In this document: positions 978 to 12,111 of the stretch, piece after piece | Position numbering within the stretch: the first letter of the stretch is position 1 | Layout of the letters: every line of letters starts with the position of its first letter | Assembly: GCA_046539235.1 (NCBI GenBank) | Contig: JBKHHI010000172.1 | Location: 1-12,911 of the forward strand | Direction of reading: 5' to 3' | Origin: Coleofasciculus sp. | GTDB lineage: Bacteria > Cyanobacteriota > Cyanobacteriia > Cyanobacteriales > Coleofasciculaceae | DNA length: 12,911 bases | The notes under the pieces: model-generated | What the model was told of the DNA's origin: nothing | Database searches by the model: none | The model's input: the letters and a program-made list of their open reading frames with translations, nothing else | Program-made: the position numbers and the translations under genes

Positions 978-2095
978 AGGATTGATGTAGAGCTAATTAG
1001 CCGATGCTATTGGATTAAAGCGCGATCGCACATTAATTTAGGTCAATATTCTGCTGCGATTGAACAGTTATAAATTACCCATCGTATCAGTCAACCGTTA
1101 TCCTATCCTCGGCTTTATCTGGATATTTTAGCGGATTTACATCATCTCTATTGGCAGACAAAAGATTATCTAAAAGCCTTTAAAATTAAGCAGGAACGGC
1201 AAACCGTTGAAACCCAATTAGGATTAAGGGCGTTTATCGGTGCCAGTCGCATTCCATCGATTGTCGGGGCAAACCTCTCTCCAAACCTCTCTCCTTCAAG
1301 GAGAGAGGCTTTGAATACTCCACATTCTGTCCTCAATAGTCCCACTCATCTATTAAATACTCCCCCTTCCCTGGCAGGGAAGGGGGCTGGGGGGTTAGGT
1401 TTCATCGCCCCAGAAATTATCGCATCGGGGCGGGAAAAAGATGTGCGGGAATTGGTGGAACGGGTGACACGGAATGATCATAAAGTTATTGTCCTTCACG
1501 GTTTCTCTGGTGTGGGTAAAAGTTCCTTGGTGAATGCCGGATTAGTGCCAACCCTACGCCAAACAACCGCCAGTGGACAACGCATTCTTCCGATTTTGAT
1601 CCAAGTTTATACCGATTGGCTACAGGAAATTGGGCAGCAATTAACCGCCACGCTAGAAACACACAATATTCCCATCACTCAACCCCTCGACTCTCAAGCC
1701 GCGATTCTAGAAGCCTTGCGCCAGAGTGAAACTCAGCAGGTGCGAATTGTGTTCATTTTTGACCAGTTTGAAGAATTCTTTTTTGTGGCGAATAGAAAAG
1801 CCTTAAGAAATGAATTATTTAGGTTTTTTGGCAACTGCTTAAATATTTTACCTGTTAAGATTATCTTTTCTATCCGTCGGGATTATTTGCATCATTTGGT
1901 AGATAGACCGGGGATGGAAGCAATTGGTAATGACCTTTTGGCGCTTCAGATGACAATACGGTGCGGTTGTGGCGGGTGGAGACATTAGACGACCTGCTGG
2001 TTCGGGGTTGCGACTGGTTGCGGGACTATCTCAGCACTCATCCCGATGTCAGCGATATTGATGAGTTTTGTGCAGGGGAATTAGAGAGGGGGTAG
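978..2095 (+). pseudogene. Remnant of a TPR / nSTAND-type P-loop NTPase / WD40-repeat protein (5' truncated, in-frame stop, internal deletion with frameshift)
   Basis: One frame (mod 3 = 0) reads ..VELISRCYWIKARSHINLGQYSAAIEQL, TAA (1071-1073), ITHRISQPLSYPRLYLDILADLHHLYWQTKDYLKAFKIKQERQTVETQLGLRAFIGASRI.. It continues IAPEIIASGREKDVRELVERVTRNDHKVIVLHGFSGVGKSSLVNAGLVPTLRQ (Walker A GxSGVGKSS), IVFIFDQFEEFF (Walker B) and RRDYLHHLV. At about 1930-1945 homology jumps to frame 2: GASDDNTVRLWRVETLDDLLVRGCDWLRDYLSTHPDV..ELERG, stop at 2093-2095. That is the last WD40 blade plus the typical C-terminal tail of cyanobacterial WD40 proteins. Confidence 0.75.
1270..1400. repeat. In-frame insertion of small palindromic dispersed repeats inside the NTPase pseudogene
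   Basis: Direct repeat aacctctctcc x2 (1273-1294). Hairpin cctctctcc-ttcaa-ggagagagg (1286-1308). Perfect 11-bp stem cccccttccct-ggc-agggaaggggg (1362-1386), followed by ctggggggtt. It translates as ANLSPNLSPSRREAL...PPSLAGKGAGGLGF between conserved protein segments. Confidence 0.6.
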
Positions 2096-2231: not shown

Positions 2232-2270
2232 CTAAAATTTTCATAGAAACTATTATTCTTCCCTTGAGCT

Positions 2271-2702
2271 ATGATACCAGAATTAACCGTAGAAGCTGCC
2301 AAAATTGTATGCGGTGCAGTTATTGAAACCAGTGTGGGCAAAGCAACAGAAGAGGCAATTATTAAACTGCGAGATACTATAAAGCGCAAATTGTCAAGCA
2401 ATCCCGAAGCCGATCGCGCGATCGCAGCCGCCCAAAAGGGTTCTCAACCGGACTTCGCAAAGGTAACACAGTATTTACAAGCGGCGATGAAACAAGATCC
2501 GGCTTTTGCCCAAGAGGTGGAACGTTTAGCTGGACAGGTTGTGAACATCAGTAGTATAGCCGATCAGCGGACTGTGAATAAAAAGAGCGATCGCAGCAGC
2601 CGCACGGTTCAGGTGAAAGCCGAGACAACAGGCGATATTATTAGCGATATTAAAGCCGACTCCATTGGGCGAATTGGCGGGAAGGATACCCACTACCACT
2701 GA
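2271..2702 (+). CDS. N-terminal helical module plus low-complexity linker of a STAND NTPase, terminated by an in-frame TGA; probably once contiguous with 2811..5303
   Basis: 143-aa ORF: MIPELTVEAAKIVCGAVIETSVGKATEEAIIKLRDTIKRKL...AFAQEVERLAGQVVNISS, then the linker TVNKKSDRSSRTVQVKAETTGDIISDIKADSIGRIGGKDTHYH. It is in the same frame as the downstream NB-ARC ORF, with no other stop between them. This helical-head plus repetitive-linker layout is common at N-termini of cyanobacterial STAND proteins, recalled from memory. Confidence 0.6.
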   Translation: MIPELTVEAAKIVCGAVIETSVGKATEEAIIKLRDTIKRKLSSNPEADRAIAAAQKGSQPDFAKVTQYLQAAMKQDPAFAQEVERLAGQVVNISSIADQRTVNKKSDRSSRTVQVKAETTGDIISDIKADSIGRIGGKDTHYH

Positions 2703-2810
2703 CTACTGGTAGAAAATCAGCGCAGCACCCCACCAAATTTAGATGAAATCCGCCCCAGTACCGATAATTGGCAAGGGCGAAAATTAGAACGCCAAACTAT
2801 TCGGGATTGG

Positions 2811-5303
2811 ATGGCGGATGGGAAGACTCGTTTAATTGGAATTACGGGTATCGGTGGGTTGGGTAAATCGACGCTGGCGGCTAAGATTTACGACGAGGAT
2901 AGTCGCGAATTTGCCGATAAAGTTTGGGCAGATATTAGCCGGATTGGGTTTACCGAGTTAGCGCGGCGCGTCTTATTGAAATTTGGATTATCTCCGGAAA
3001 CCATCCAGGCGATACCTGAACAATCCCTGGGAGATGCATTAGTGAATCATCTACGTCAGGGGCGGTATTTGCTGGTGATGGATAATCTAGAAACCCTACT
3101 GCAATCTGATAGTGAGGATAACAAGAATACGTCTATTCGCGATGAATCCTATCGGCAGTTTTTCTATAGCTGGCTGCAATGTGGCGGCAAAAGTGTGGTG
3201 TTGGTGACAACGAGAGAACGCCTGGATTTGCCACCGATTCGATGTCAATGGTTATCTTTACCAGGATTAGAACCTGTGGAAGGGGCGACGTTATTGCAGG
3301 CGTTGGGAATTCGGGGAACCGAGGAGGAATTCGTCAAGTTTTCCCAGAAAGTAGAGGGACATCCGTTATTATTAACGCTGGTGGCTGGGTTTTTATTAGA
3401 AGAGGAAGAAGTTGATCCACAGATTCGGTATTTGCATCGCTATGGGTTGGCGGATATATCCCATTTATTAACGGATGAAAATTTAAAAGGATTGCATCGG
3501 GGTATAGTTGATATCTGGATGCGGCGGGTATTAGATGAGAGTTTTGGGCGGATTAGTCAGAGAGTGCAGCAATTGGTATTGGGAGTATGTGTTTATCGAA
3601 TTCCCTTCAATTCAGCCATGGCGTTGGCGCAGATTCGTAGTCTCTCTTTTGAAGGGGATTTGGAGGTATCTCAACCTCAAAATAAGCAGGAAAGATCCTC
3701 TCTAGATTCTTCCTTAGATTCTCCAGATTCTCTTAGCCCCCCTTTTGAAGGGGGGTTGGGGGGATCTAAAAGGGGCAACATCGAGACCAAAAGCATTGAG
3801 AAAGATTTTCGCCAGTTGGTGAGACGTTCTCTACTACAGGAAGAGAGAGATAAAGATGGGGGGCGATGGTTTAAGTTTCAGCCATTGATTCAGGAGTATG
3901 CGAAATGCCAAGCGGGAGATTTAACCCAGGCGCATCAACGGGCGATTGATTATTATCGTTTAAATACTCAACAACCTCCTTGGGAAAAAATAGAGGATAT
4001 AACAGAATATCTGGAACTCTTCAATCACTGGTGTGAACTTCAACAGTATATTCCAGCTTTGAACATTCTGCGCTACTGCAATGAGTTTTTAGCATTGCGT
4101 GGGTATAGTCAGATTCAGGTTAAATTGTATAATCAATTAATTGGGGAGTGGAATCGAAGCAAGTTAGATTGGGTATTTGGTGGATTACTTAGAGATTTGG
4201 GAACTACTTATTATCATTTAGGAGAATACAAAAAATCTATCGTATACACGCAGCAGTCTTTAGCTATATTTGAGGGAATTGGTAATTGCACTGATATTGC
4301 TATTTCTCGGCTGAACTTGGGTAACGTTTATTATTTTATAGGAGATTATAAAAAATCAATAGAATACTCTCAGCAAGCTTTGGATTTATTGAAAAATAAC
4401 GGTAATTATTTTCGAGATAACTTTCTTTTACAAAAGTACATTGCTATTTGTCTGAATAATTTAGGAAATGCTTACCGTTCACTAGCAGACTATAAACAAG
4501 CAATTGAATACCATAAAAAATCTTTGGATTTATTTGAAGAAATTGGCGATCACATTAACAGTAAAAAGCTCCTGATAAATTTAGGTAATGTTTATTTTTC
4601 AATGGCAGACTATAAACAGGTAATTGAATACGATAAAAAATCTTTAGCTATATTGAAAGAGATTGGTGATCAAAGTGGAATTGCTAGTTCTTTGGATAAT
4701 TTAGGCTGTGTTTGCAGTTCTTTAGGAGAATATAAAAAAGCAATAGACTATCATAAACAGTCATTATTGATTCGTCAGGAAATAGGAAATCGCAGTGGAA
4801 TTGCTAGTTCTTTATCCAATTTAGGCGCTGTTTACCATTTCCTAGGAGAATACCAACACTCAATTGAATACTATCAACAAGCTTTTGAAATCAAACATGA
4901 AATAGGCGATCGCTGTGGTATGGCAGAGACCTTCGTCGGCTTGGGTAATACTTATAGTTGCTTAGGAGAATACCAACGGTCGATTGAATATTATCAGAAA
5001 GCTATGGTGATTTGTGAAGAAATTGGTGATCGTAATAGTCTTGCTGTTACTCTAGATAATTTTGGGATTGTTTATCATTGCCTTGGGCAATATACAAAAG
5101 CAATAAAATATTTTCAGCAATCTTTAGCGATTCAACGAGAAATAGGTAATCGCAGAGGTATAGCTAATGCATTAGGAAATTTAGGTAATACTTATAATTT
5201 CCTAGGACAATATCAAGACTCTATTGAAGCTTCAATGGAGTCTATGGCGAATTATCCGCGCCTCCATCAAGCGCCAGCCTCAGCACCCATGAGAAACAAT
5301 TGA
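2811..5303 (+). CDS. NB-ARC (AP-ATPase) STAND NTPase with C-terminal TPR array (NLR-like protein)
   Basis: Walker A GITGIGGLGKSTLA (about 2841-2880). Walker B YLLVMDNLE. VLVTTRER (sensor/RNBS-B-like). GHPLLLTLVAG (GxP motif). Winged-helix region ending WFKFQPLIQEYAK. Then 8 full and 1 partial 40-aa TPR units (LGNxYxxLGxYxxxIEYxxQxLxIxxEIGxRxG). The true coding region probably starts upstream of ATG 2811; see findings. Confidence 0.85.
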   Translation: MADGKTRLIGITGIGGLGKSTLAAKIYDEDSREFADKVWADISRIGFTELARRVLLKFGLSPETIQAIPEQSLGDALVNHLRQGRYLLVMDNLETLLQSDSEDNKNTSIRDESYRQFFYSWLQCGGKSVVLVTTRERLDLPPIRCQWLSLPGLEPVEGATLLQALGIRGTEEEFVKFSQKVEGHPLLLTLVAGFLLEEEEVDPQIRYLHRYGLADISHLLTDENLKGLHRGIVDIWMRRVLDESFGRISQRVQQLVLGVCVYRIPFNSAMALAQIRSLSFEGDLEVSQPQNKQERSSLDSSLDSPDSLSPPFEGGLGGSKRGNIETKSIEKDFRQLVRRSLLQEERDKDGGRWFKFQPLIQEYAKCQAGDLTQAHQRAIDYYRLNTQQPPWEKIEDITEYLELFNHWCELQQYIPALNILRYCNEFLALRGYSQIQVKLYNQLIGEWNRSKLDWVFGGLLRDLGTTYYHLGEYKKSIVYTQQSLAIFEGIGNCTDIAISRLNLGNVYYFIGDYKKSIEYSQQALDLLKNNGNYFRDNFLLQKYIAICLNNLGNAYRSLADYKQAIEYHKKSLDLFEEIGDHINSKKLLINLGNVYFSMADYKQVIEYDKKSLAILKEIGDQSGIASSLDNLGCVCSSLGEYKKAIDYHKQSLLIRQEIGNRSGIASSLSNLGAVYHFLGEYQHSIEYYQQAFEIKHEIGDRCGMAETFVGLGNTYSCLGEYQRSIEYYQKAMVICEEIGDRNSLAVTLDNFGIVYHCLGQYTKAIKYFQQSLAIQREIGNRRGIANALGNLGNTYNFLGQYQDSIEASMESMANYPRLHQAPASAPMRNN
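3644..3770. repeat. In-frame small dispersed repeat insertion inside the NB-ARC/TPR gene
   Basis: Two related copies: ctcttttgaaggggatttggaggtatc (3644-3670) and cccttttgaaggggggttggggggatc (3740-3766). The second forms the hairpin cccccc-ttttgaa-gggggg (3737-3755). They encode SFEGDLEVS...PPFEGGLGGS within the winged-helix/linker region. This is the same C-run/loop/G-run + tgggggg architecture as 1362-1396. Confidence 0.6.
4186..5235 (+). repeat. Tandem ~120-bp coding repeats (TPR units)
   Basis: The period is exactly 120 bp in places: agtggaattgctagttcttt at 4674 and again at 4794. The protein units are listed under the CDS. Confidence 0.85.
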
Positions 5304-5418: not shown

Positions 5419-5523
5419 TAAAAAAACATCATGTCGATACCGACACATCGGACAGTATAAGGCACTAAAGTGCCTACTACAAACTATTTTAACCTGTCAT
5501 TGGAGACTGAAGGGAAGAATCTC

Positions 5524-5548
5524 GCCAGATGTATTCGTAACATCTGGC
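5524..5548. terminator. Candidate stem-loop downstream of the PIN toxin gene (weak terminator candidate)
   Basis: Perfect 9-bp stem gccagatgt-attcgta-acatctggc, 20 nt beyond the minus-strand stop at 5569. There is no clear U-tract on the minus strand. Confidence 0.25.
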
Positions 5549-5568
5549 TTCAGGTCATTCTATTTGAT

Positions 5569-5997
5569 TCAGGGGATAATTTCAAAACTTTCACAATGTC
5601 GAGGTCGAAATAATCTAAAGTCACGCTGATCCAATGTTAATATTTTTGTACTTCCAAAGCGTTCGGCTACAGCCATAACACTTGCATCCACAAAATCAAT
5701 CCGACTATCTGCATACTCTGCCAATATTTCTGCTACCCTTTCTATGTCTTGATCGGTCAAGGCAACTAAACGAAATCGACTGGCAGATAGTCCTCGTAAA
5801 AAACTGACTACCGTTGTTATTCCCGCATTACGCCCAACTAAATAAGCCACTTCTGCCAATACGGTTTGTGGTAATAAAATTGCCGATGTTTTGCGTGAAT
5901 AAATCGTCGTCACACTTCTATGCATCGTATCTAAGCGATTCAACAGGGCAACAACAAACCCCGTATCAGCTACGGCTGAGATTCTTTCCATGTCCAC
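5569..5997 (-). CDS. vapC: PIN-domain ribonuclease toxin (VapC-like, type II TA)
   Basis: The acidic PIN residues are in the expected order: AVADTGF (N-terminal D), LAEVAYL (E), IDFVDASVMA (D), LTLDQRDF (D). The protein is about 140 aa. Start is GTG 5997 or ATG 5991. It overlaps the upstream small antitoxin-like ORF. Confidence 0.85.
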   Translation of the reverse strand: MDMERISAVADTGFVVALLNRLDTMHRSVTTIYSRKTSAILLPQTVLAEVAYLVGRNAGITTVVSFLRGLSASRFRLVALTDQDIERVAEILAEYADSRIDFVDASVMAVAERFGSTKILTLDQRDFRLFRPRHCESFEIIP

Positions 5998-6239
5998 CCC
6001 GATTTTTCAGTAATCTCTTGTTGCAGTATTTCTTCTGAACGAATGGCAAGATCACTCGTACTAGCAAATAGTCCCACCAACGGATCAGAGTCAACATTGG
6101 TATTCTCGATTGATGAGGGCGTTTCCTGAGATAGGTTAATTTGTTGGCGAATCAACCTTGACAACGCTTCAATTAATTGCATTTTCTCATCAAGAGTGAG
6201 GCTGCCCGATAGATGGAGTACCTCGTTATAATTAGCCAT
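5970..6239 (-). CDS. Small antitoxin-like protein partnered with the PIN toxin (addiction-module-component-like N-terminal helix)
   Basis: 89 aa. The motif LTLDEKMQLIEALSRLIRQQ resembles the LSxEERxxLxxxLxxSL motif of putative addiction module components. SD-like aaggaaag lies 5-12 nt upstream of ATG 6239. Its stop overlaps the toxin start by 22-28 nt. Confidence 0.7.
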   Translation of the reverse strand: MANYNEVLHLSGSLTLDEKMQLIEALSRLIRQQINLSQETPSSIENTNVDSDPLVGLFASTSDLAIRSEEILQQEITEKSGWTWKESQP

Positions 6240-6338
6240 AGGGTCTTTCCTTGAACAACATTCCTTTGAACACTTATTTTAGCCCAAATAGCCATGTATG
6301 ATGGGCAAAGATTGTCAACCAGAAAATGCCGATAGTAG

Positions 6339-6366
6339 GGTGGGTTTCGACTTCGCTCAACCCACC
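6339..6366. repeat. Small dispersed hairpin repeat
   Basis: ggtgggtt-tcgacttcgctc-aacccacc, a motif type that recurs in cyanobacterial intergenic DNA. Confidence 0.45.
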
Positions 6367-6490
6367 AGCATACCAGTCAGTACCATGTGTTTGTCGTCAG
6401 CGATGGGATGGGAATCGGGCGCAAGACGAGACGCCCTGACAAGGTGGTAAATAAACGGGAGCTTGTAACATCTCGTTACAATGGACTTGG

Positions 6491-6596: not shown

Positions 6597-8090
6597 ATGT
6601 TGCCATACGTCCTCGCGTTGGTTATCGGTCTTGGTAGCTTTGCCTATTACATGGCAGCATTCTTTTTTCCCGAAGTCCACCGCAAAAGCGACTTCCTCTG
6701 GAGTGGTGTCGGATTTTTCTACGCCCTCGTCTTGTGGGTGTGCGCCGGACGGATTACCGGGGCGGTACTCCTGAGTCAAATCGCCAGTGTATCCCTATTG
6801 GGCTGGTTAGGCTGGCAAACTCTGATGCTGCGGCGACAGTTGGCTTTACCTGAAGCCCAAACCGAAATTTCGCCCCAAGTTCAGGAAAAAATAGCCAGTT
6901 CTGGGATGTTCCAATTGGCAAAAAACCTAGTGGTTCAACCCGTCGCCCGGGTGTTCCGTAGAAAACCCGTTACACCAACCCCAGTCGTGACTGAACCGGA
7001 ACTCGTGACGGAACCAGCGACGCCAGAGACGGAAATCGCCCCAGCCAAAACGGAAATGGGAGAACCCTTCCCTGGAACAGTTACAGAGATAACTGAGGAA
7101 GTGCAACCGCCATCGGAAGAAAGCGATGTCCCCGTCGCCTCTCCCACAGAGGTAAGAGAGGAAACCCCAGAGGAAACCCTAGAGGAACCCGTAATGGCGG
7201 ATATCACTGAACCGGCTGAAGTCACGGAAACAGTAGAAACAACGCCAACTGAACGGGTAGAGGAACCCCCTGAGGAAACAACGCCGCCAGAACAGATAGG
7301 GGAATTTGCCCCAGACGAGTCTCCAACCCAGACACCCCTAGAAGAATGGACGTTAACCGAGACACCTGTAGCCGAGACACCCCTAGAAGAACAGACGTTA
7401 ACCGAGACACCTACAGAAGAGAAACCCGCAGAAGCACAGACATTAACCGAGACACCTACAGAAGAGAAACCCGCAGAACCCGCCCAGAAACAACCCAAAC
7501 AACGCCAAGGAATTAGTGGCTTCTTCAATAATCTCTTGGGCAAAGGTAAGGCAAAACCCGCTAAAACCAAGGAACCTGAGACAGTATCAGAGGATATTTC
7601 CACTTCACCCGAACCAGAAATCTCTGAATCCAGTCAGCCAGACACCCCACTCAAGGAGTCCCCAACTCCGAGTCAGGGTACAGAAGAAACAGCCGAATCT
7701 GAGGAAGCCCAACCCCCAGAAACCTCAGAGGAAACCTCAAGCGTTGACAGTACCTTAGGGGAACAACCACAGCCACCTAAACCAGAACTCCCGCAGAACC
7801 AGGAAGCCCAACCCCCAGAAACCCCAGAGAAACCAACAGCCGAGGGGACTCAACCCTCCGACTCCAAACAACTCATACGTCCGAATCCGCCGGAACCCGA
7901 ACGGATAGACGCGGCGAACCAATCGGCTGAACCTGAATCCTCAGAATCCCAAGAAATCCCCGTCGAAGAAATTGCGCCAGAATCGCAACTATCGCCCCCC
8001 GCTGAACAGATAGGTGAGGGTGACCCCAAATCCCGCCCATCTTCTGGCGAATCATCCCCAGGTTCAGAAAATCCTCCCCAGTCAAGTTGA
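6597..8090 (+). CDS. ycf66: Ycf66-family membrane protein with a long acidic Pro/Glu/Thr/Ser-rich C-terminal extension
   Basis: The N-terminal ~85 aa, MLPYVLALVIGLGSFAYYMAAFFFPEVHRKSDFLWSGVGFFYALVLWVCAGRITGAVLLSQIASVSLLGWLGWQTLMLRRQL, matches the conserved Ycf66 N-terminal hydrophobic (transmembrane) domain as I remember it. SD aaggag (6581-6586) lies 10 nt before the ATG. The rest is low-complexity and disordered. Confidence 0.8.
   Translation: MLPYVLALVIGLGSFAYYMAAFFFPEVHRKSDFLWSGVGFFYALVLWVCAGRITGAVLLSQIASVSLLGWLGWQTLMLRRQLALPEAQTEISPQVQEKIASSGMFQLAKNLVVQPVARVFRRKPVTPTPVVTEPELVTEPATPETEIAPAKTEMGEPFPGTVTEITEEVQPPSEESDVPVASPTEVREETPEETLEEPVMADITEPAEVTETVETTPTERVEEPPEETTPPEQIGEFAPDESPTQTPLEEWTLTETPVAETPLEEQTLTETPTEEKPAEAQTLTETPTEEKPAEPAQKQPKQRQGISGFFNNLLGKGKAKPAKTKEPETVSEDISTSPEPEISESSQPDTPLKESPTPSQGTEETAESEEAQPPETSEETSSVDSTLGEQPQPPKPELPQNQEAQPPETPEKPTAEGTQPSDSKQLIRPNPPEPERIDAANQSAEPESSESQEIPVEEIAPESQLSPPAEQIGEGDPKSRPSSGESSPGSENPPQSS
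7331..7480 (+). repeat. 45-bp in-frame tandem repeat (~3.3 copies) inside the ycf66 tail
   Basis: Units start at 7331, 7376, 7421 and 7466 (the last is partial). They encode TPLEEWTLTETPVAE / TPLEEQTLTETPTEE / KPAEAQTLTETPTEE / KPAEP. Confidence 0.85.
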
Positions 8091-8604: not shown

Positions 8605-11600
8605 GTGACAGAAGCTAAATCCTACAAAGACACCGTAAATCTGCCCCAAACTGAATTTAGTATGCGGGCAAACGCGGTCAAACGGGAACCGGAACTCCAA
8701 CAATTTTGGCAAGACCAACAAATTTATCAGCGACTGTCACAGACGAATCCCGGTGATAGTTTCATCCTGCATGATGGTCCCCCCTACGCGAATGGGGCGC
8801 TGCATATGGGACACGCCCTAAATAAAATTCTTAAAGATATCATCAATAAATATAAGCTGCTGCAAGGGTATAAAGTTCGCTACATTCCTGGCTGGGATTG
8901 CCACGGCTTGCCGATTGAACTGAAAGTCCTGCAAGCCATGGACGCCGAAGAACGCCAAGCCCTAACCCCGATAAAACTGCGGCGCAAAGCCCGAAACTTT
9001 GCCTTGAAAACGGTTGACCAGCAACGTCAAGGCTTTAAACGGTATGGTGTATGGGGAGACTGGGATCACCCTTACCTGACCTTAACCCCCGAATACGAAG
9101 CCGCTCAAATAGGCGTATTCGGTCAGATGGTGCTAAAAGGGTATATCTATCGGGGAATGAAGCCCGTTCATTGGAGTCCCAGTTCCCAAACCGCCTTGGC
9201 AGAAGCGGAGTTAGAATATCCAGAAGGACATACCTCCCGCAGTCTTTATGCGGCGTTTCCCCTGACCAAAGCCACAGAATCTGTGGAAGCTAGGCTAAAA
9301 CCCTATTTAGTGGATTTGGGTGTCGCCATCTGGACAACCACCCCCTGGACAATTCCCGGTAACTTAGCCGTGGCGGTGAATCCCGAACTCACCTACGCGG
9401 TTGTAGAAGTGTCAGGGAAATCAGCCAGTCAGGAGGCGGAAAAATCCTCTAAGTCGAATAAAACAAAGGCAAAAGGATTTGCGCCAACGCCAGACGAGGA
9501 ATCCGCAGACGCAGAAGCATCAGCCGACTCAGACACGGAAGCCGAAGGGTTTAAATACTTAATCGTGGCGGCGGAATTAGTCGAACGCCTTTCTCAAACC
9601 TTGGATAAAGATCTAACCGTCAAAACTACCCTGAAAGGAGAAGAATTAGACCAGTGTACCTATCGCCATCCCCTCTTTGACCGGGAAAGTCCGATTGTGA
9701 TTGGTGGCGATTATATTACCACCGAATCAGGTACGGGATTAGTTCATACTGCACCCGGTCATGGTCAAGAGGATTATATCGTCGGTCAGCGCTACAATTT
9801 ACCGATTATCTCTCCTGTAGATGGAAATGGAGATTTTACCACCGAAGCTGGACCCTTTGCTGGGTTAAATGTGCTGCGGAATGCGAATCCGGCGGTGATT
9901 GACGCCCTGAAAGAGGCGGGTTCGTTCCTTAAAGAAGAAAACTACGTCCATAAATATCCCTACGATTGGCGCACTAAAGAACCAACTATCTTCCGGGCGA
10001 CGGAACAATGGTTTGCGTCGGTGGATGGTTTCCGGGAAGAAGTGATGAAAGCAATTCAATCCGTTGATTGGATTCCTTCCCAAGGTGAAAACCGGATTAC
10101 CGCTATGGTGTCGGAACGTTCCGATTGGTGTATCTCCCGCCAACGGAGTTGGGGTGTACCGATTCCGGTGTTTTATGATCAGGAGACGAATGAACCTCTA
10201 CTGACAGAAGAAACCATCGCCCACGTACAAGGGATTATTGCCGAAAAAGGGTCCGATGCGTGGTGGGAATTGTCGGTGACGGACTTATTACCCGAATCCT
10301 ACCGAAATAATGGTCGCACCTACCGCAAAGGCACCGATACGATGGATGTCTGGTTTGATTCCGGTTCGTCTTGGGCGGGAGTTGTGCAAGAACGTGAGGA
10401 ATTATCCTACCCTGTCGATATGTACCTGGAAGGGTCAGATCAACATCGGGGTTGGTTCCAATCCAGTATCCTCACCAGTGTGGCAACAAATGGTTGTGCG
10501 CCCTATAAATCAGTATTAACCCACGGCTTTGTTCTGGATGAACAAGGGCGTAAAATGAGCAAATCTGTGGGCAATGTGGTAGACCCCGCGACGATTATTG
10601 AAGGGGGGAAGAATCATAAACAGGAACCGCCTTATGGGGCGGATATGCTGCGGCTATGGGTGTCGTCTGTGGACTACTCAGTCGATGTCCCTATTGGTCA
10701 AGGAATACTCAAACAGCTTTCCGATATTTATCGCAAGATTCGCAATACGGCGCGATTTTTATTGGGGAATCTGCATGATTTTGACCCTGCTAAAAATGCG
10801 GTGGCGTATGAACAGTTACCGGAATTAGACCGTTATATGCTGCACCGGATAACGGAGGTGTTTGGTGAGGTGACTGAGGCGTTTGAAAGTTATCAGTTTT
10901 TCCGTTTCTTCCAAACGGTGCAGAATTTCTGTGTGGTGGATTTGTCTAACTTTTATTTAGATATTGCGAAAGATCGTCTGTATATCAGTCATCCAGATTC
11001 GGTACGACGGCGCAGTTGTCAGACGGTATTAGCGATCGCACTGGAAAATTTAGCTCGATCCATTGCGCCTGTATTATGCCATACAGCAGAAGATATCTGG
11101 CAATATCTGCCTTATCCGACTCCCTATAAATCAGTGTTTGAGTCAGGATGGGTGCAGTTAGATGAAACCTGGAAAAAGCCAGAATTGGTGGAGAAATGGA
11201 CAAGGTTACGGAATATCCGCACTGAGGTGAATAAGGTTTTAGAGCAAGCCAGGACAGAGAAGATGATAGGCTCTTCTTTAGAAGCGAAAGTGTTGCTCTA
11301 TGTCCCTGATGCTCAATTACGCCAACAGTTGCGGAAATTAAACCCCAGTGGGATTCCGCGCCTGTGGTTGCAAACCCCGAAACCGGAACTGATGATGATG
11401 GAACAGGAACCCGAAGCAGCATTAGCTTCAGAAATGCTGTCCTCACAGACAGAAGCACAAGAGTGGAACTTTAACCAAATTCTGTCTAATGTATTGGTGA
11501 CGCTACGCCAGGTTTTCAGTGAAAATCAGCGCGTATGGTTAACGGTGGGGGTAGTGGTGGCGATACCGATTACCTTAAAAGTAACCGCAACGGTATTAGA

Positions 11601-12111
11601 TTCGATCGCACGTTTACCCTTATTGGCTGATATGTTGCAACTGGTGGGGATTGGCTACAGTGCATGGTTTGTCAATCGCTATTTACTCCGCGCCCCCAAT
11701 CGGCAAGAATTAGCCCAGAAAGCGCGATCGCTAAAAACTGAGGTATTGGGTGAAGGTTCTCCCCAACCGGAACCTGCGACGACTGAACCCGCCGTCGAAC
11801 CCCCAGCGCCAGTACAACCCCAACCCCAACCCCAACCCAGAATTCTAGGGGAACGGTTTATGGTTCTCAGTAACGGGGTGGATGAGTTGCGCTATCTGTT
11901 TTTAGCCTCCCAAGTTGAGGTATTAGAGTCCCCGGATGCGATTGAAAATGCTGACTATCACAGTCAGTCAGAACACGTCTGGGTGGGGGTTGTCAAAGCT
12001 GAAGGCGAAAAGTGCGATCGCTGCTGGAATTATTCACCTTTTGTGGGTAAAATTATCGAGCATCCCACGATTTGTGAACGGTGTCGGGCGGCTTTAGCGG
12101 GCCAATGGTAA
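8605..12111 (+). CDS. ileS: Isoleucine--tRNA ligase (class I) with two lineage-specific insertions, including a CAAD membrane-anchor domain
   Basis: N-terminus MTEAKSYKDTVNLPQTEFSMRAN. HIGH-type motif PPYANGALHMGHALNK. KMSKS in GRKMSKSVGN. Editing-domain motifs (TTTPWTIPGN, HTAPGHGQEDY). C-terminal Zn-finger CDRCWNY...CERC. GTG start at 8605. Confidence 0.97.
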   Translation: MTEAKSYKDTVNLPQTEFSMRANAVKREPELQQFWQDQQIYQRLSQTNPGDSFILHDGPPYANGALHMGHALNKILKDIINKYKLLQGYKVRYIPGWDCHGLPIELKVLQAMDAEERQALTPIKLRRKARNFALKTVDQQRQGFKRYGVWGDWDHPYLTLTPEYEAAQIGVFGQMVLKGYIYRGMKPVHWSPSSQTALAEAELEYPEGHTSRSLYAAFPLTKATESVEARLKPYLVDLGVAIWTTTPWTIPGNLAVAVNPELTYAVVEVSGKSASQEAEKSSKSNKTKAKGFAPTPDEESADAEASADSDTEAEGFKYLIVAAELVERLSQTLDKDLTVKTTLKGEELDQCTYRHPLFDRESPIVIGGDYITTESGTGLVHTAPGHGQEDYIVGQRYNLPIISPVDGNGDFTTEAGPFAGLNVLRNANPAVIDALKEAGSFLKEENYVHKYPYDWRTKEPTIFRATEQWFASVDGFREEVMKAIQSVDWIPSQGENRITAMVSERSDWCISRQRSWGVPIPVFYDQETNEPLLTEETIAHVQGIIAEKGSDAWWELSVTDLLPESYRNNGRTYRKGTDTMDVWFDSGSSWAGVVQEREELSYPVDMYLEGSDQHRGWFQSSILTSVATNGCAPYKSVLTHGFVLDEQGRKMSKSVGNVVDPATIIEGGKNHKQEPPYGADMLRLWVSSVDYSVDVPIGQGILKQLSDIYRKIRNTARFLLGNLHDFDPAKNAVAYEQLPELDRYMLHRITEVFGEVTEAFESYQFFRFFQTVQNFCVVDLSNFYLDIAKDRLYISHPDSVRRRSCQTVLAIALENLARSIAPVLCHTAEDIWQYLPYPTPYKSVFESGWVQLDETWKKPELVEKWTRLRNIRTEVNKVLEQARTEKMIGSSLEAKVLLYVPDAQLRQQLRKLNPSGIPRLWLQTPKPELMMMEQEPEAALASEMLSSQTEAQEWNFNQILSNVLVTLRQVFSENQRVWLTVGVVVAIPITLKVTATVLDSIARLPLLADMLQLVGIGYSAWFVNRYLLRAPNRQELAQKARSLKTEVLGEGSPQPEPATTEPAVEPPAPVQPQPQPQPRILGERFMVLSNGVDELRYLFLASQVEVLESPDAIENADYHSQSEHVWVGVVKAEGEKCDRCWNYSPFVGKIIEHPTICERCRAALAGQW
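11350..11868 (+). other. CAAD-domain-encoding insertion within ileS (two transmembrane helices plus a Pro-rich linker)
   Basis: Between conserved LRKLNPSG and NGVDELRYLFLASQVEV lie about 173 extra aa. They contain RVWLTVGVVVAIPITLKVTATVLDSI (about 11530-11605) and LPLLADMLQLVGIGYSAWFVNRYLL (about 11614-11688), then RQELAQKA. This is the CAAD/CURT1 signature. It is followed by PQPEPATTEPAVEPPAPVQPQPQPQP, with (caaccc)x4 at 11815-11838. Confidence 0.85.

Follow-up and report, generated by a model that had tools for sequence, protein, structure and literature searches.

Evidence Consistent With a Recoded Bell/BASS-NLR Amyloid-Signaling Locus in Coleofasciculus

How is a receptor translated when its conserved coding sequence begins upstream of its first canonical start codon, directly behind the stop codon of another gene? 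This question is raised by a 12,911-nucleotide stretch of DNA from Coleofasciculus sp. (GenBank assembly GCA_046539235.1, contig JBKHHI010000172.1), referred to here as the window. It contains a small open reading frame (ORF) followed in the same frame by the ORF of a NOD-like receptor (NLR), with a single TGA and a stretch of stop-free sequence between them. The original prediction, made from this DNA without database searches, left several explanations side by side, namely a recent nonsense pseudogene or sequencing error, leaky read-through and a genuinely split two-gene system. The comparative analysis described below suggests that the locus is probably a derived form of the Bell/BASS-NLR amyloid-signaling cell-death module, in which programmed recoding would yield an abundant free effector and a rare effector-motif-NLR fusion. 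A wider proposal, toward which we lean with somewhat less assurance, is that a subset of NLR/amyloid systems has replaced the receptor-side motif by recoding at least five times, either by UGA read-through or by -1 frameshifting at A_AAA_AAG. The sensor would then be a rare extension of the effector, and one motif copy would match the partners, set their stoichiometry and be free to diversify.

One Frame With a Single Interruption

The small ORF (2271..2702, + strand) runs from ATG 2271 to TGA 2700-2702 and encodes 143 aa, and the base that follows its stop, read directly from the sequence, is the C at 2703. Positions 2703-2810 then provide 36 sense codons, translated as LLVENQRSTPPNLDEIRPSTDNWQGRKLERQTIRDW, in the same frame as the annotated NLR, which extends from ATG 2811 to TAA 5303 and encodes 830 aa (2811..5303, + strand). 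The whole of 2271-5303 is one open frame whose sole interruption is TGA 2700-2702. Coordinates and translation confirm what the original prediction had said of the shared frame and of the 108-nt gap, which is stop-free and has no in-frame ATG, GTG or TTG; CTG 2706, ATC 2748 and ATT are present. The proposed read-through site is the TGA together with its +4 C (2700..2703, + strand), which is conserved in relatives, and the proposed recoded product is a 1010-aa effector-motif-X-linker-NB-ARC-TPR protein (2271..5303, + strand), suggested by the single open frame apart from the TGA and by the comparisons given below.

The junction is not peculiar to one assembly. The exact 143-aa product, including its stop, is also recorded in three Logan SRA assemblies and in one NCBI metagenome-assembled genome (MAG). 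The same-position TGA and the same 36-codon gap occur in three further Coleofasciculus species-level MAGs (L005-L007; L numbers denote loci and P numbers effector-family members), and the cultured type strain C. chthonoplastes PCC 7420 has this junction too, at its syntenic locus (L092; small ORF MC7420_7850). L005-L007, L092 and L093 share the position of the TGA with the window; the window clade, as it is called below, takes in five species or strains. The junction TGA is found in at least eight independent assemblies from several species. A sequence scan found no terminator between the two ORFs, and the promoter-like matches that it gave in or near the gap did not stand out clearly from shuffled sequences. 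It is plausible that one transcription unit covers both ORFs.

Sequence homology identifies the 143-aa ORF as a Bell-type effector with an amyloid-signaling-type tail. An exhaustive HMMER search recovered 71 cluster representatives of its family, nearly all of them free-standing and 130-150 aa long, so that a protein stopping near residue 143 ends where this family natively ends. Uninterrupted Bell-NB-ARC fusions were absent from these 71 representatives. Longer members carry the domain N-terminal to CHAT, CHAT-TRADD_N-TIR, GUN4 or HEAT (P0084, P0101, P0108, P0087), and such fusions suggest a wider use of the Bell-like domain as a death or adaptor module. In BLASTP the 143-aa protein matches the Bell protein of the BASS10-type Microcystis locus L026 at 4e-13, and the small ORFs of L020-L028 match the effector-family hidden Markov model (HMM) at about 1e-34. 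The BASS10 motif is listed as IAMNATAYDNSTVKMVGKIEADTV on the Bell side and NEINLSATAQDQSKVNLIGKIEAKTVIVS on the NLR side (supplementary table, 10.1101/2020.01.06.895854), and both strings occur essentially verbatim in L020-L028. The original prediction had set the N-terminal module apart, but had not recognized it as a free-standing Bell-type effector with an amyloid-signaling tail.

The helical effector domain (residues 1-95; 2271..2555, + strand) is delimited by family alignment and by an AlphaFold2 (AF2) model of the 143-aa ORF. In this model, which has a mean predicted local distance difference test (pLDDT) score of 66, helices at residues 3-14, 24-41, 45-55, 59-75 and 77-105 (pLDDT 66-88) make up a five-helix domain spanning residues 3-105, and the tail at 95-143 is disordered, with pLDDT <50 from residue 95. 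Many members of the family start with MEP(I/L)(S/T), of which the MIPEL start of the window protein is a variant, and a MEPIS N-terminal signature has been reported for Bell/Hell domains (10.1101/2024.11.07.622273). A sequence search of the PDB with the 143-aa protein returned nothing significant, and Pfam and NCBIfam gave no family match for the ORF; Pfam holds no model for the domain. An identity as tRNA-cyclodipeptide synthase was dismissed at 18 bits vs a cut-off of 45. Separately, the Bell ORF of Coleofasciculus sp. D1-CHI-01 (L005, 3530-3961) lacks the N-terminal helices, in place of which there is a short DDGAKAPTTNG repeat, and has no start codon. This locus, with the TGA junction and a 1163-aa NLR ORF still intact, may be a decaying copy.

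Behind the helical domain lies the C-terminal tail (2574..2699, + strand), which alignment to relatives marks as a single-copy amyloid-signaling-like motif of diverged BASS9 type. Residues ~102-137 read VNKKSDRSSRTVQVKAETTGDIISDIKADSIGRIGG, are predicted by AF2 to be disordered as a monomer and contain the two-fold pseudo-repeat VKAETTGDI / IKADSIGRI. The tail aligns with the KGYQVKA...IGD tails of L010/L011 and with the BASS9 motif, MTQNN.DNARGWQTKVEGGTAYI (supplementary table, 10.1101/2020.01.06.895854). This motif matches the tails of the family members P0100 and P0104, and L010, L011 and the window have a diverged form of it. The match is diverged, and assignment of the window tail to the BASS9 family is approximate. 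When the tail was compared with the window by tblastn, only the self-match was found, the next best hit having E=9. The same procedure detected a second tail copy in the canonical loci used as controls (L011, 3e-10; L014, 1e-5; L020, 1e-4). By tblastn, no second copy is present in the window, in PCC 7420 (L092) or in L010, nor within 8-13 kb of any recoded locus.

The tail is also the most variable part of the locus. Positions 2594-2697 (~4327-4424 in L092) make up a hypervariable cassette, of which otherwise near-identical loci carry one or the other of two deeply diverged alleles, ...AETTGDIISDIKADSIGRIGGKDTHYH vs ...KNVGQVGDQDISGNNIKHLGNNFY. The synonymous divergence (dS) of the cassette exceeds 1, vs 0.1-0.3 in its flanks; on the 3' side the divergence stops exactly at the TGA, past which the linker hardly changes. 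Diverged tail alleles above a constant junction are what would be expected where a single motif copy must change. In L007 (3930-3961), and also in P0120-P0122, a tandem DTTNNY(G) duplication lies immediately 5' of the TGA, with frame and stop kept.

Downstream of the TGA, the 36-codon linker (2703..2810, + strand; ATC at 2748-2750, WQGR at 2769-2780) is annotated as intergenic and evolves as coding sequence. By the Nei-Gojobori method, the ratio of nonsynonymous to synonymous divergence (dN/dS) is 0.05-0.35 in the linker, with dS comparable to that of the flanks, as against 0.14-0.52 in the helical part of the effector and 0.15-0.28 in NB-ARC. WQGR, E29 and W36, all upstream of ATG 2811, are invariant in an alignment of diverse homologs, and in the start-less stretch third positions account for 30 of the 61 changes counted over four clades (p=0.007). 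The pattern LLVENQ..PNLDE.RPS..WQGR corresponds to the post-motif linker of the NLR and is homologous to the translated linker of the canonical NLRs L011/L012. The original prediction's view that the coding sequence begins before ATG 2811 is well supported by the invariant WQGR and by the dN/dS of the gap. To judge from these patterns, the linker is translated though it has no start of its own, and sequence comparison likewise indicates that the sensor of this locus has lost both its own motif and its start codon.

Only 22 codons separate the TGA from WQGR in the window, and neither the window clade nor the L019 clade has an ATG, GTG or TTG before WQGR. The codon at ATC 2748-2750 of the window clade is ATG in L009/L010 and AGA in L094; the latter locus has no ATG, and its only TTG is 3 codons before the W of WQGR. 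In L019/L021/L030 and L017/L018 the first canonical start is 54-136 codons past the opening of the NLR frame, near or beyond the P-loop, and in L030 it lies well inside the NB-ARC domain.

The remainder of the frame encodes the sensor, an NB-ARC/TPR NLR body identified by Pfam. The match to NB-ARC (PF00931; 52.6 bits vs a cut-off of 23.5, 4.8e-14) begins two residues before Met-2811. A weak AAA_16 alignment that does not reach the Pfam cut-off (E=0.0019) starts at the W of WQGR, and this fits the FVGRE-type helix that had been predicted to precede the P-loop. The P-loop (Walker A) itself, GIGGLGKST, is at 2847..2873 (+ strand), and its residues G51, G52, G54, K55 and S56 are invariant in the homolog alignment. 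A TPR sensor array follows at 4200..5270 (+ strand), with TPR_12, TPR_10 and TPR_1 matches over residues ~500-855 of the translation that starts at 2703; that to TPR_12 reaches 237 bits (1e-71), directly downstream of the effector on the same strand. The orthologous NLR ORFs of L005-L007 and L092 are all intact and, at 695-1163 aa, differ in TPR number; otherwise they are ~90 % identical. Such variation in TPR array length is typical of the repeat-number plasticity of NLR sensor domains.

Canonical and Putatively Recoded Relatives

In a Bell/BASS pair as defined in the literature, the Bell protein carries the motif at its C-terminus and the NLR carries it again at its N-terminus (10.1101/2020.01.06.895854). 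The Bell-side motif, ~25 aa long and enriched in G, N, Q, V and I, follows a helical domain of ~100 aa, and the adjacent collinear gene encodes an NLR of NB-ARC or NACHT type with TPR or WD repeats. Relatives with this canonical organization (L011, L012, L014-L016, L020-L028) have an NLR ATG at least 62 codons before WQGR, an effector that stops at TAA or TAG, and an arbitrary frame relation between the two genes. In the Calothrix locus L011, for instance, the effector ends in ...MKQTNRDNSKGYQVKANQVSHIGDVNNPG followed by its stop, and the NLR begins at its ATG with MKQSNRDNSKGYQTSANRVEHLGDKTH...NLTINQGTNPQPQPIISPNLDEMRPSLDCWQGR, that is, with its own copy of the motif and then the linker. The split two-gene system entertained in the original prediction thus holds for canonical relatives (L011, L014-L016, L020-L028) but not for the window, where NLR start and motif copy have been lost. 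In L011 the Bell gene is separated from the NLR by a 770-nt spacer (2233-3000), which contains ~8 tandem copies of GTAGGGGTTTAGCA plus an inverted partial copy, and is possibly an inserted repeat element.

Every NLR locus that lacks a motif of its own falls into one of two further types, in both of which the receptor is reachable from the effector ORF. Type B is characterized by a single in-frame TGA and comprises the window clade, L009 (Trichocoleus Lan, TGA-A), L010 (Coleofasciculus FACHB-T130, TGA-C), L094 (Trichocoleus DQ-U1, TGA-C), L013 (TGA-C) and L019/L021/L030 (TGA-C). The distances from TGA to WQGR are 22, 34, 28, 28, 28 and 33 codons in the window clade, L009, L010, L094, L013 and L019/L021/L030, respectively. 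The tails of type-B effectors differ between loci and have indels 5' of the stop, with the frame kept. Most junctions have the UGA-C context, often as UGA-CU(G/A).

In type C the NLR is in the -1 frame relative to the effector, and an A_AAA_AAG heptamer stands in phase 0-1 codons before the effector stop. The effector ORF ends GA[A AAA AAG] TAA in L017 and L018 and GT[A AAA AAG] GAC TAG in L043. The joined product reads ...IEKK|VTLATEAALKIAEKLEQ...DSPKRIDYWQGR, and its homolog in L014/L015 is the linker of their canonical NLRs. No canonical start precedes WxxR in L017/L018, and L043 has only a TTG, 4 codons before WxxR. The type-C product might also arise by transcriptional slippage on the A6-7 run. 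One further locus that had been flagged as start-less, L029, has a TGA-C upstream and was rejected because no effector ORF lies upstream of it; it is an NLR with a short N-terminus. The distant metagenomic loci L031-L091 gave no match to the Bell HMM, and no further start-less NLR was found among them where the P-loop could be located.

These associations would be surprising as coincidences. The effector stop is TGA in 4/4 conservatively counted type-B lineages vs 0/7 canonical lineages (Fisher p=0.003), and the chance of all four type-B lineages being in frame is about 0.012. For type C, the background frequency of in-phase heptamers is 1.1e-4 per codon, counted over the ~62,000 ORF codons of these loci with the three real sites included, and the joint expectation for two independent heptamers in windows of 6 and 13 codons is about 1e-6. 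In a neighbor-joining tree of NB-ARC there are at least five independent transitions between the canonical and recoded states. Type-B L019/L021/L030 lie inside the canonical BASS10 clade and type-C L017/L018 inside the canonical L014/L015 clade, L043 and L013 occupy separate branches, and the canonical Calothrix pair stands between two Coleofasciculus/Trichocoleus type-B clades.

Proposed Mechanism and Competing Explanations

According to the recoding model, most ribosomes would terminate at UGA-C and release the free 143-aa effector. A minority would read through, probably inserting Trp, and produce the 1010-aa effector-motif-linker-NB-ARC-TPR fusion. One DNA copy of the motif would then serve both partners, with the consequences that sensor and effector motifs would be identical, that the motif could diversify freely and that the sensor:effector ratio would be fixed at low:high. 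Ligand-driven oligomerization of NB-ARC would cluster the motif and nucleate the amyloid fold, which would template the excess free effector, and helix 1 of the templated effector would attack the membrane. The templating and membrane-killing steps are modeled on HET-S/NWD2, the BASS pairs and Bab/Agp, since for related systems a mechanism of this kind is established, and it is from the same analogy that the motif of this locus would be expected to form an amyloid or prion templated from the NLR side. A Bell effector with an amyloid tail as the N-terminal module provides a functional rationale for read-through. The leaky read-through of the original prediction, with 143-aa and ~1010-aa products, is favored by the conservation of TGA and frame across indels, by the independent lineages and by the sister loci with -1 heptamers, although this support is indirect. 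Selenocysteine insertion and a reassigned code were considered for the TGA and set aside, the stop coinciding with the native end of a free-standing family. Cyanobacteria use the standard genetic code.

Several observations weigh against the recoding model. It is in E. coli, not in cyanobacteria, that UGA-C has been measured as leaky and A_AAA_AAG as slippery, and the support for read-through comes from sequence comparison. The stop context is TGA-G in L005 and TGA-A in L009. Eight 91-nt folds downstream of the recoding sites, TGA or heptamer, revealed no conserved stimulatory RNA structure; their z scores range from about -1.0 to +1.2, L019 alone having z=-2.7. Lineage counts are small, and several of the loci come from metagenome assemblies. 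In addition, a Foldseek search of the PDB with the moderate-confidence AF2 model of the effector gave a best E of about 1 and no match to Bell, Bab (9H9V), HeLo or MLKL, and the Bell assignment consequently rests on sequence homology; the literature describes structural conservation as very low (10.1101/2024.11.07.622273). Finally, some junctions offer codons from which a motif-less NLR might be initiated. These are the ATG of L009/L010 and the TTG of L013/L043, 4-7 codons 5' of WQGR, and a CTG 1-2 codons 3' of the TGA in five of the six type-B junctions, which might allow re-initiation. The contexts of this CTG are TGA CTA CTG in the window (2703-2711 for the codons after the stop), TGA CTG CTG in L010, TGA CTG GCG in L013, TGA CTG GAG in L019 and TGA GTA CTG in L005. 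This codon could serve re-initiation as CUG, or it could belong to a context that favors read-through.

The same codons are the chief argument for the main rival explanation, that two separate proteins are made. The effector would end at the TGA, and a motif-less NLR, initiated or re-initiated at CTG 2706 or ATC 2748, would signal to it in some other way. ATC 2748 aligns with the ATG of L009/L010, in which translation could begin at that point as it could at the TTG of L013/L043, and separate initiation would also explain the coding constraint on the gap. It has no need, however, of a shared frame, a TGA or an in-phase heptamer, yet every motif-less lineage has one of these arrangements, and the position of the putative start is not conserved, being ATG, ATC or AGA. 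Moreover, the residues from the TGA to the ATC (LLVENQRSTPPNLDE) are conserved too and are homologous to the translated linker of canonical NLRs, and with a single-copy motif a separately initiated sensor would be left without a known signaling route. We consider this explanation unlikely, though clearly the strongest of the alternatives. Far less probable is that the effector's true partner is some other NLR elsewhere in the genome with a matching motif, the adjacent motif-less NLR being unrelated or a decoy. Cyanobacterial genomes do hold many NLR paralogs, such as the nSTAND1-WD40 gene next door. A database search with the tail motifs yielded four candidates and failed to recover the query's own protein, so it was too insensitive to count against a partner in trans. 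Against such a partner are the conserved physical and frame linkage of the effector with the adjacent NLR across at least five lineages, the confinement of the motif to a single copy within the 8-13 kb around each recoded locus, and the N-terminus of the neighboring nSTAND1 ORF, which has no visible similarity to the tail.

An ordinary gene pair, with the NLR starting at ATG 2811 and the 108 nt before it serving as a regulatory spacer or left over, non-coding, from an N-terminus since lost, is if anything slightly harder still to accept. ATG 2811 is the first canonical start, it has a weak GGGA a few bases upstream, and gene callers have chosen it in several genomes. A protein that started there would nonetheless be without the invariant WQGR, E and W, and these are preserved here, as the dN/dS of 0.05-0.35 and the third-position bias attest. 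Furthermore, the corresponding first canonical start in L019/L021/L030 and L017/L018, 54-136 codons downstream, would place initiation near or past the P-loop. The remaining explanation, decay or artifact, would make the locus either an all-in-one NLR with a nonsense mutation or an assembly or sequencing error at 2700-2702. It could appeal to the single in-frame stop, to the L005 effector ORF that lacks its N-terminus and to the neighboring nSTAND1 gene, a remnant. It is effectively refuted by the presence of the same TGA in at least eight independent assemblies, including that of a cultured strain, by the identity of the stop with the native C-terminus of a free-standing 130-150-aa family, and by NLR ORFs that are intact and under purifying selection at every locus, in an arrangement that recurs in independent lineages. 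The sequencing error or recent nonsense pseudogene first considered for the window is likewise contradicted by the occurrence of the TGA in several species and by purifying selection on both halves and on the gap. Overall, recoding at the junction remains the explanation that we favor.

Genomic Context and Comparison With Known Systems

The genes around the locus place it on a cyanobacterial chromosome, as confirmed by two housekeeping neighbors downstream on the + strand, a Ycf66-N family protein (6597-8090) and an isoleucyl-tRNA synthetase with a cyanobacterial CAAD insertion and a zinc finger (8605-12111). Upstream, a 225-aa nSTAND1 ORF (1311-1988, + strand) is the remnant of a 1869-aa nSTAND1-WD40 NLR found at the same place in PCC 7420. 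Window positions 1865-1940 align to 1-76 of L092 and positions 1941-2084 to 3258-3401, and ~3.2 kb of WD40 repeats are absent from the window, either through a real deletion or through short-read collapse of near-identical repeats. Between the NLR and the housekeeping genes, a PIN-domain ORF (5569-5997, - strand; Pfam 4e-13) overlaps an upstream 89-aa ORF (5970-6239, - strand), with which it forms a VapBC-like toxin-antitoxin pair. The pair sits in a segment of ~900 bp (5487-6388) that has no counterpart at the syntenic PCC 7420 locus.

Of the systems already described, the BASS9 and BASS10 Bell-NLR pairs are the closest. They share with the window a small (~100 aa) helical domain, a C-terminal tail rich in G, N and Q, a filamentous cyanobacterial host and a collinear NB-ARC/TPR NLR immediately downstream, and the proteins are homologous. 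They differ in that the window has a single copy of the motif and an NLR without a start, joined to the effector by an in-frame TGA (in relatives, by an A_AAA_AAG -1 site). The window locus is therefore not a canonical Bell/BASS member but a derived variant. The published screen searched the N-termini of annotated NLRs for the motif and would have missed loci of this kind.

Experimental precedent for the inferred mechanism comes from the antiphage system Bab/Agp of E. coli ECOR25 (BASS11), in which the amyloid motif of a Bell-type "Babybell" effector is converted by a TPR-containing sensor, with membrane damage and abortive infection as the outcome (10.1101/2024.11.07.622273). In contrast to the NB-ARC protein of the window, that sensor is a TPR-GreA/B-PIN protein, and the system has two motif copies in a pair of ordinary genes, without recoding. 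HET-S/NWD2 of Podospora anserina and other fungal pairs are similar in that the N-terminal motif of an NLR templates the C-terminal prion-forming domain of a pore-forming HeLo effector encoded by the adjacent gene. Their motif on the effector side can also consist of two pseudo-repeats, like that of the window tail. However, these systems are eukaryotic and consist of separate genes, without sequence homology to the present locus and without recoding. The predicted read-through product also resembles the all-in-one NLRs, such as fungal HeLo-NLRs, plant CC-NLR resistosomes and bacterial Avs2/bNACHT with a MEPIS N-terminus, in having a membrane-targeting helical death domain followed by NOD and repeats. 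What would set the window apart is that the death domain is proposed to be made also in large excess as a free protein with an amyloid tail, from the same ORF.

We found no report of a bacterial immune switch wired in this way, with the sensor as a rare recoded extension of its effector. The two Bell/BASS papers (10.1101/2020.01.06.895854 and 10.1101/2024.11.07.622273) make no mention of read-through, frameshift or stop codons, a search for literature joining amyloid signaling or NLRs with frameshifting or read-through found nothing relevant, and surveys of prokaryotic frameshifts and in-frame stops do not mention the family (PMC3711429, PMC7918605). If the proposal is correct, an immune gene on a bacterial chromosome would be shown to use conserved, functional read-through, and a prion-like signaling switch wired by recoding would be known for the first time. 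The locus would exemplify a new design principle, in which an amyloid motif is shared by translation rather than by gene duplication, and a natural, tunable device for setting an effector:sensor ratio. It would also explain why such loci escape motif-pair screens, and many cyanobacterial NLRs annotated as "N-terminally truncated" would have that annotation corrected. Moreover, simple stop-codon mutants of cultured PCC 7420 would open Bell/NLR function to direct test.

Viruses and eukaryotes offer well-known examples of functional stop-codon read-through. To our knowledge, very few conserved cases exist in bacterial chromosomal genes, and cellular -1 frameshifting is limited to a handful, dnaX among them. 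Minor extensions made by recoding include Q-beta coat/A1 and MuLV Gag/Gag-Pol, which depend on read-through, and HIV Gag/Gag-Pol, lambda G/GT and E. coli dnaX tau/gamma, which depend on -1 frameshifting at A_AAA_AAG or a similar site. These are viral, phage or replication genes, none of them an immune receptor/effector pair, and they differ further from the present junctions, at which no downstream stimulatory structure was detected. The proposed arrangement otherwise parallels that of Q-beta, Gag-Pol, lambda G/GT and dnaX, in which the ratio of long to short form is fixed at a low value and the long form joins or nucleates the assembly of the short form through the part that they share. Homologs within such recoding systems also swap read-through and -1 frameshifting, as type B and type C appear to do, and the type-C heptamer is that of dnaX. 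As judged from these sequences, homologous loci use two different recoding signals at one junction, a pattern that is a classic mark of recoding under selection and is known from Gag/Gag-Pol.

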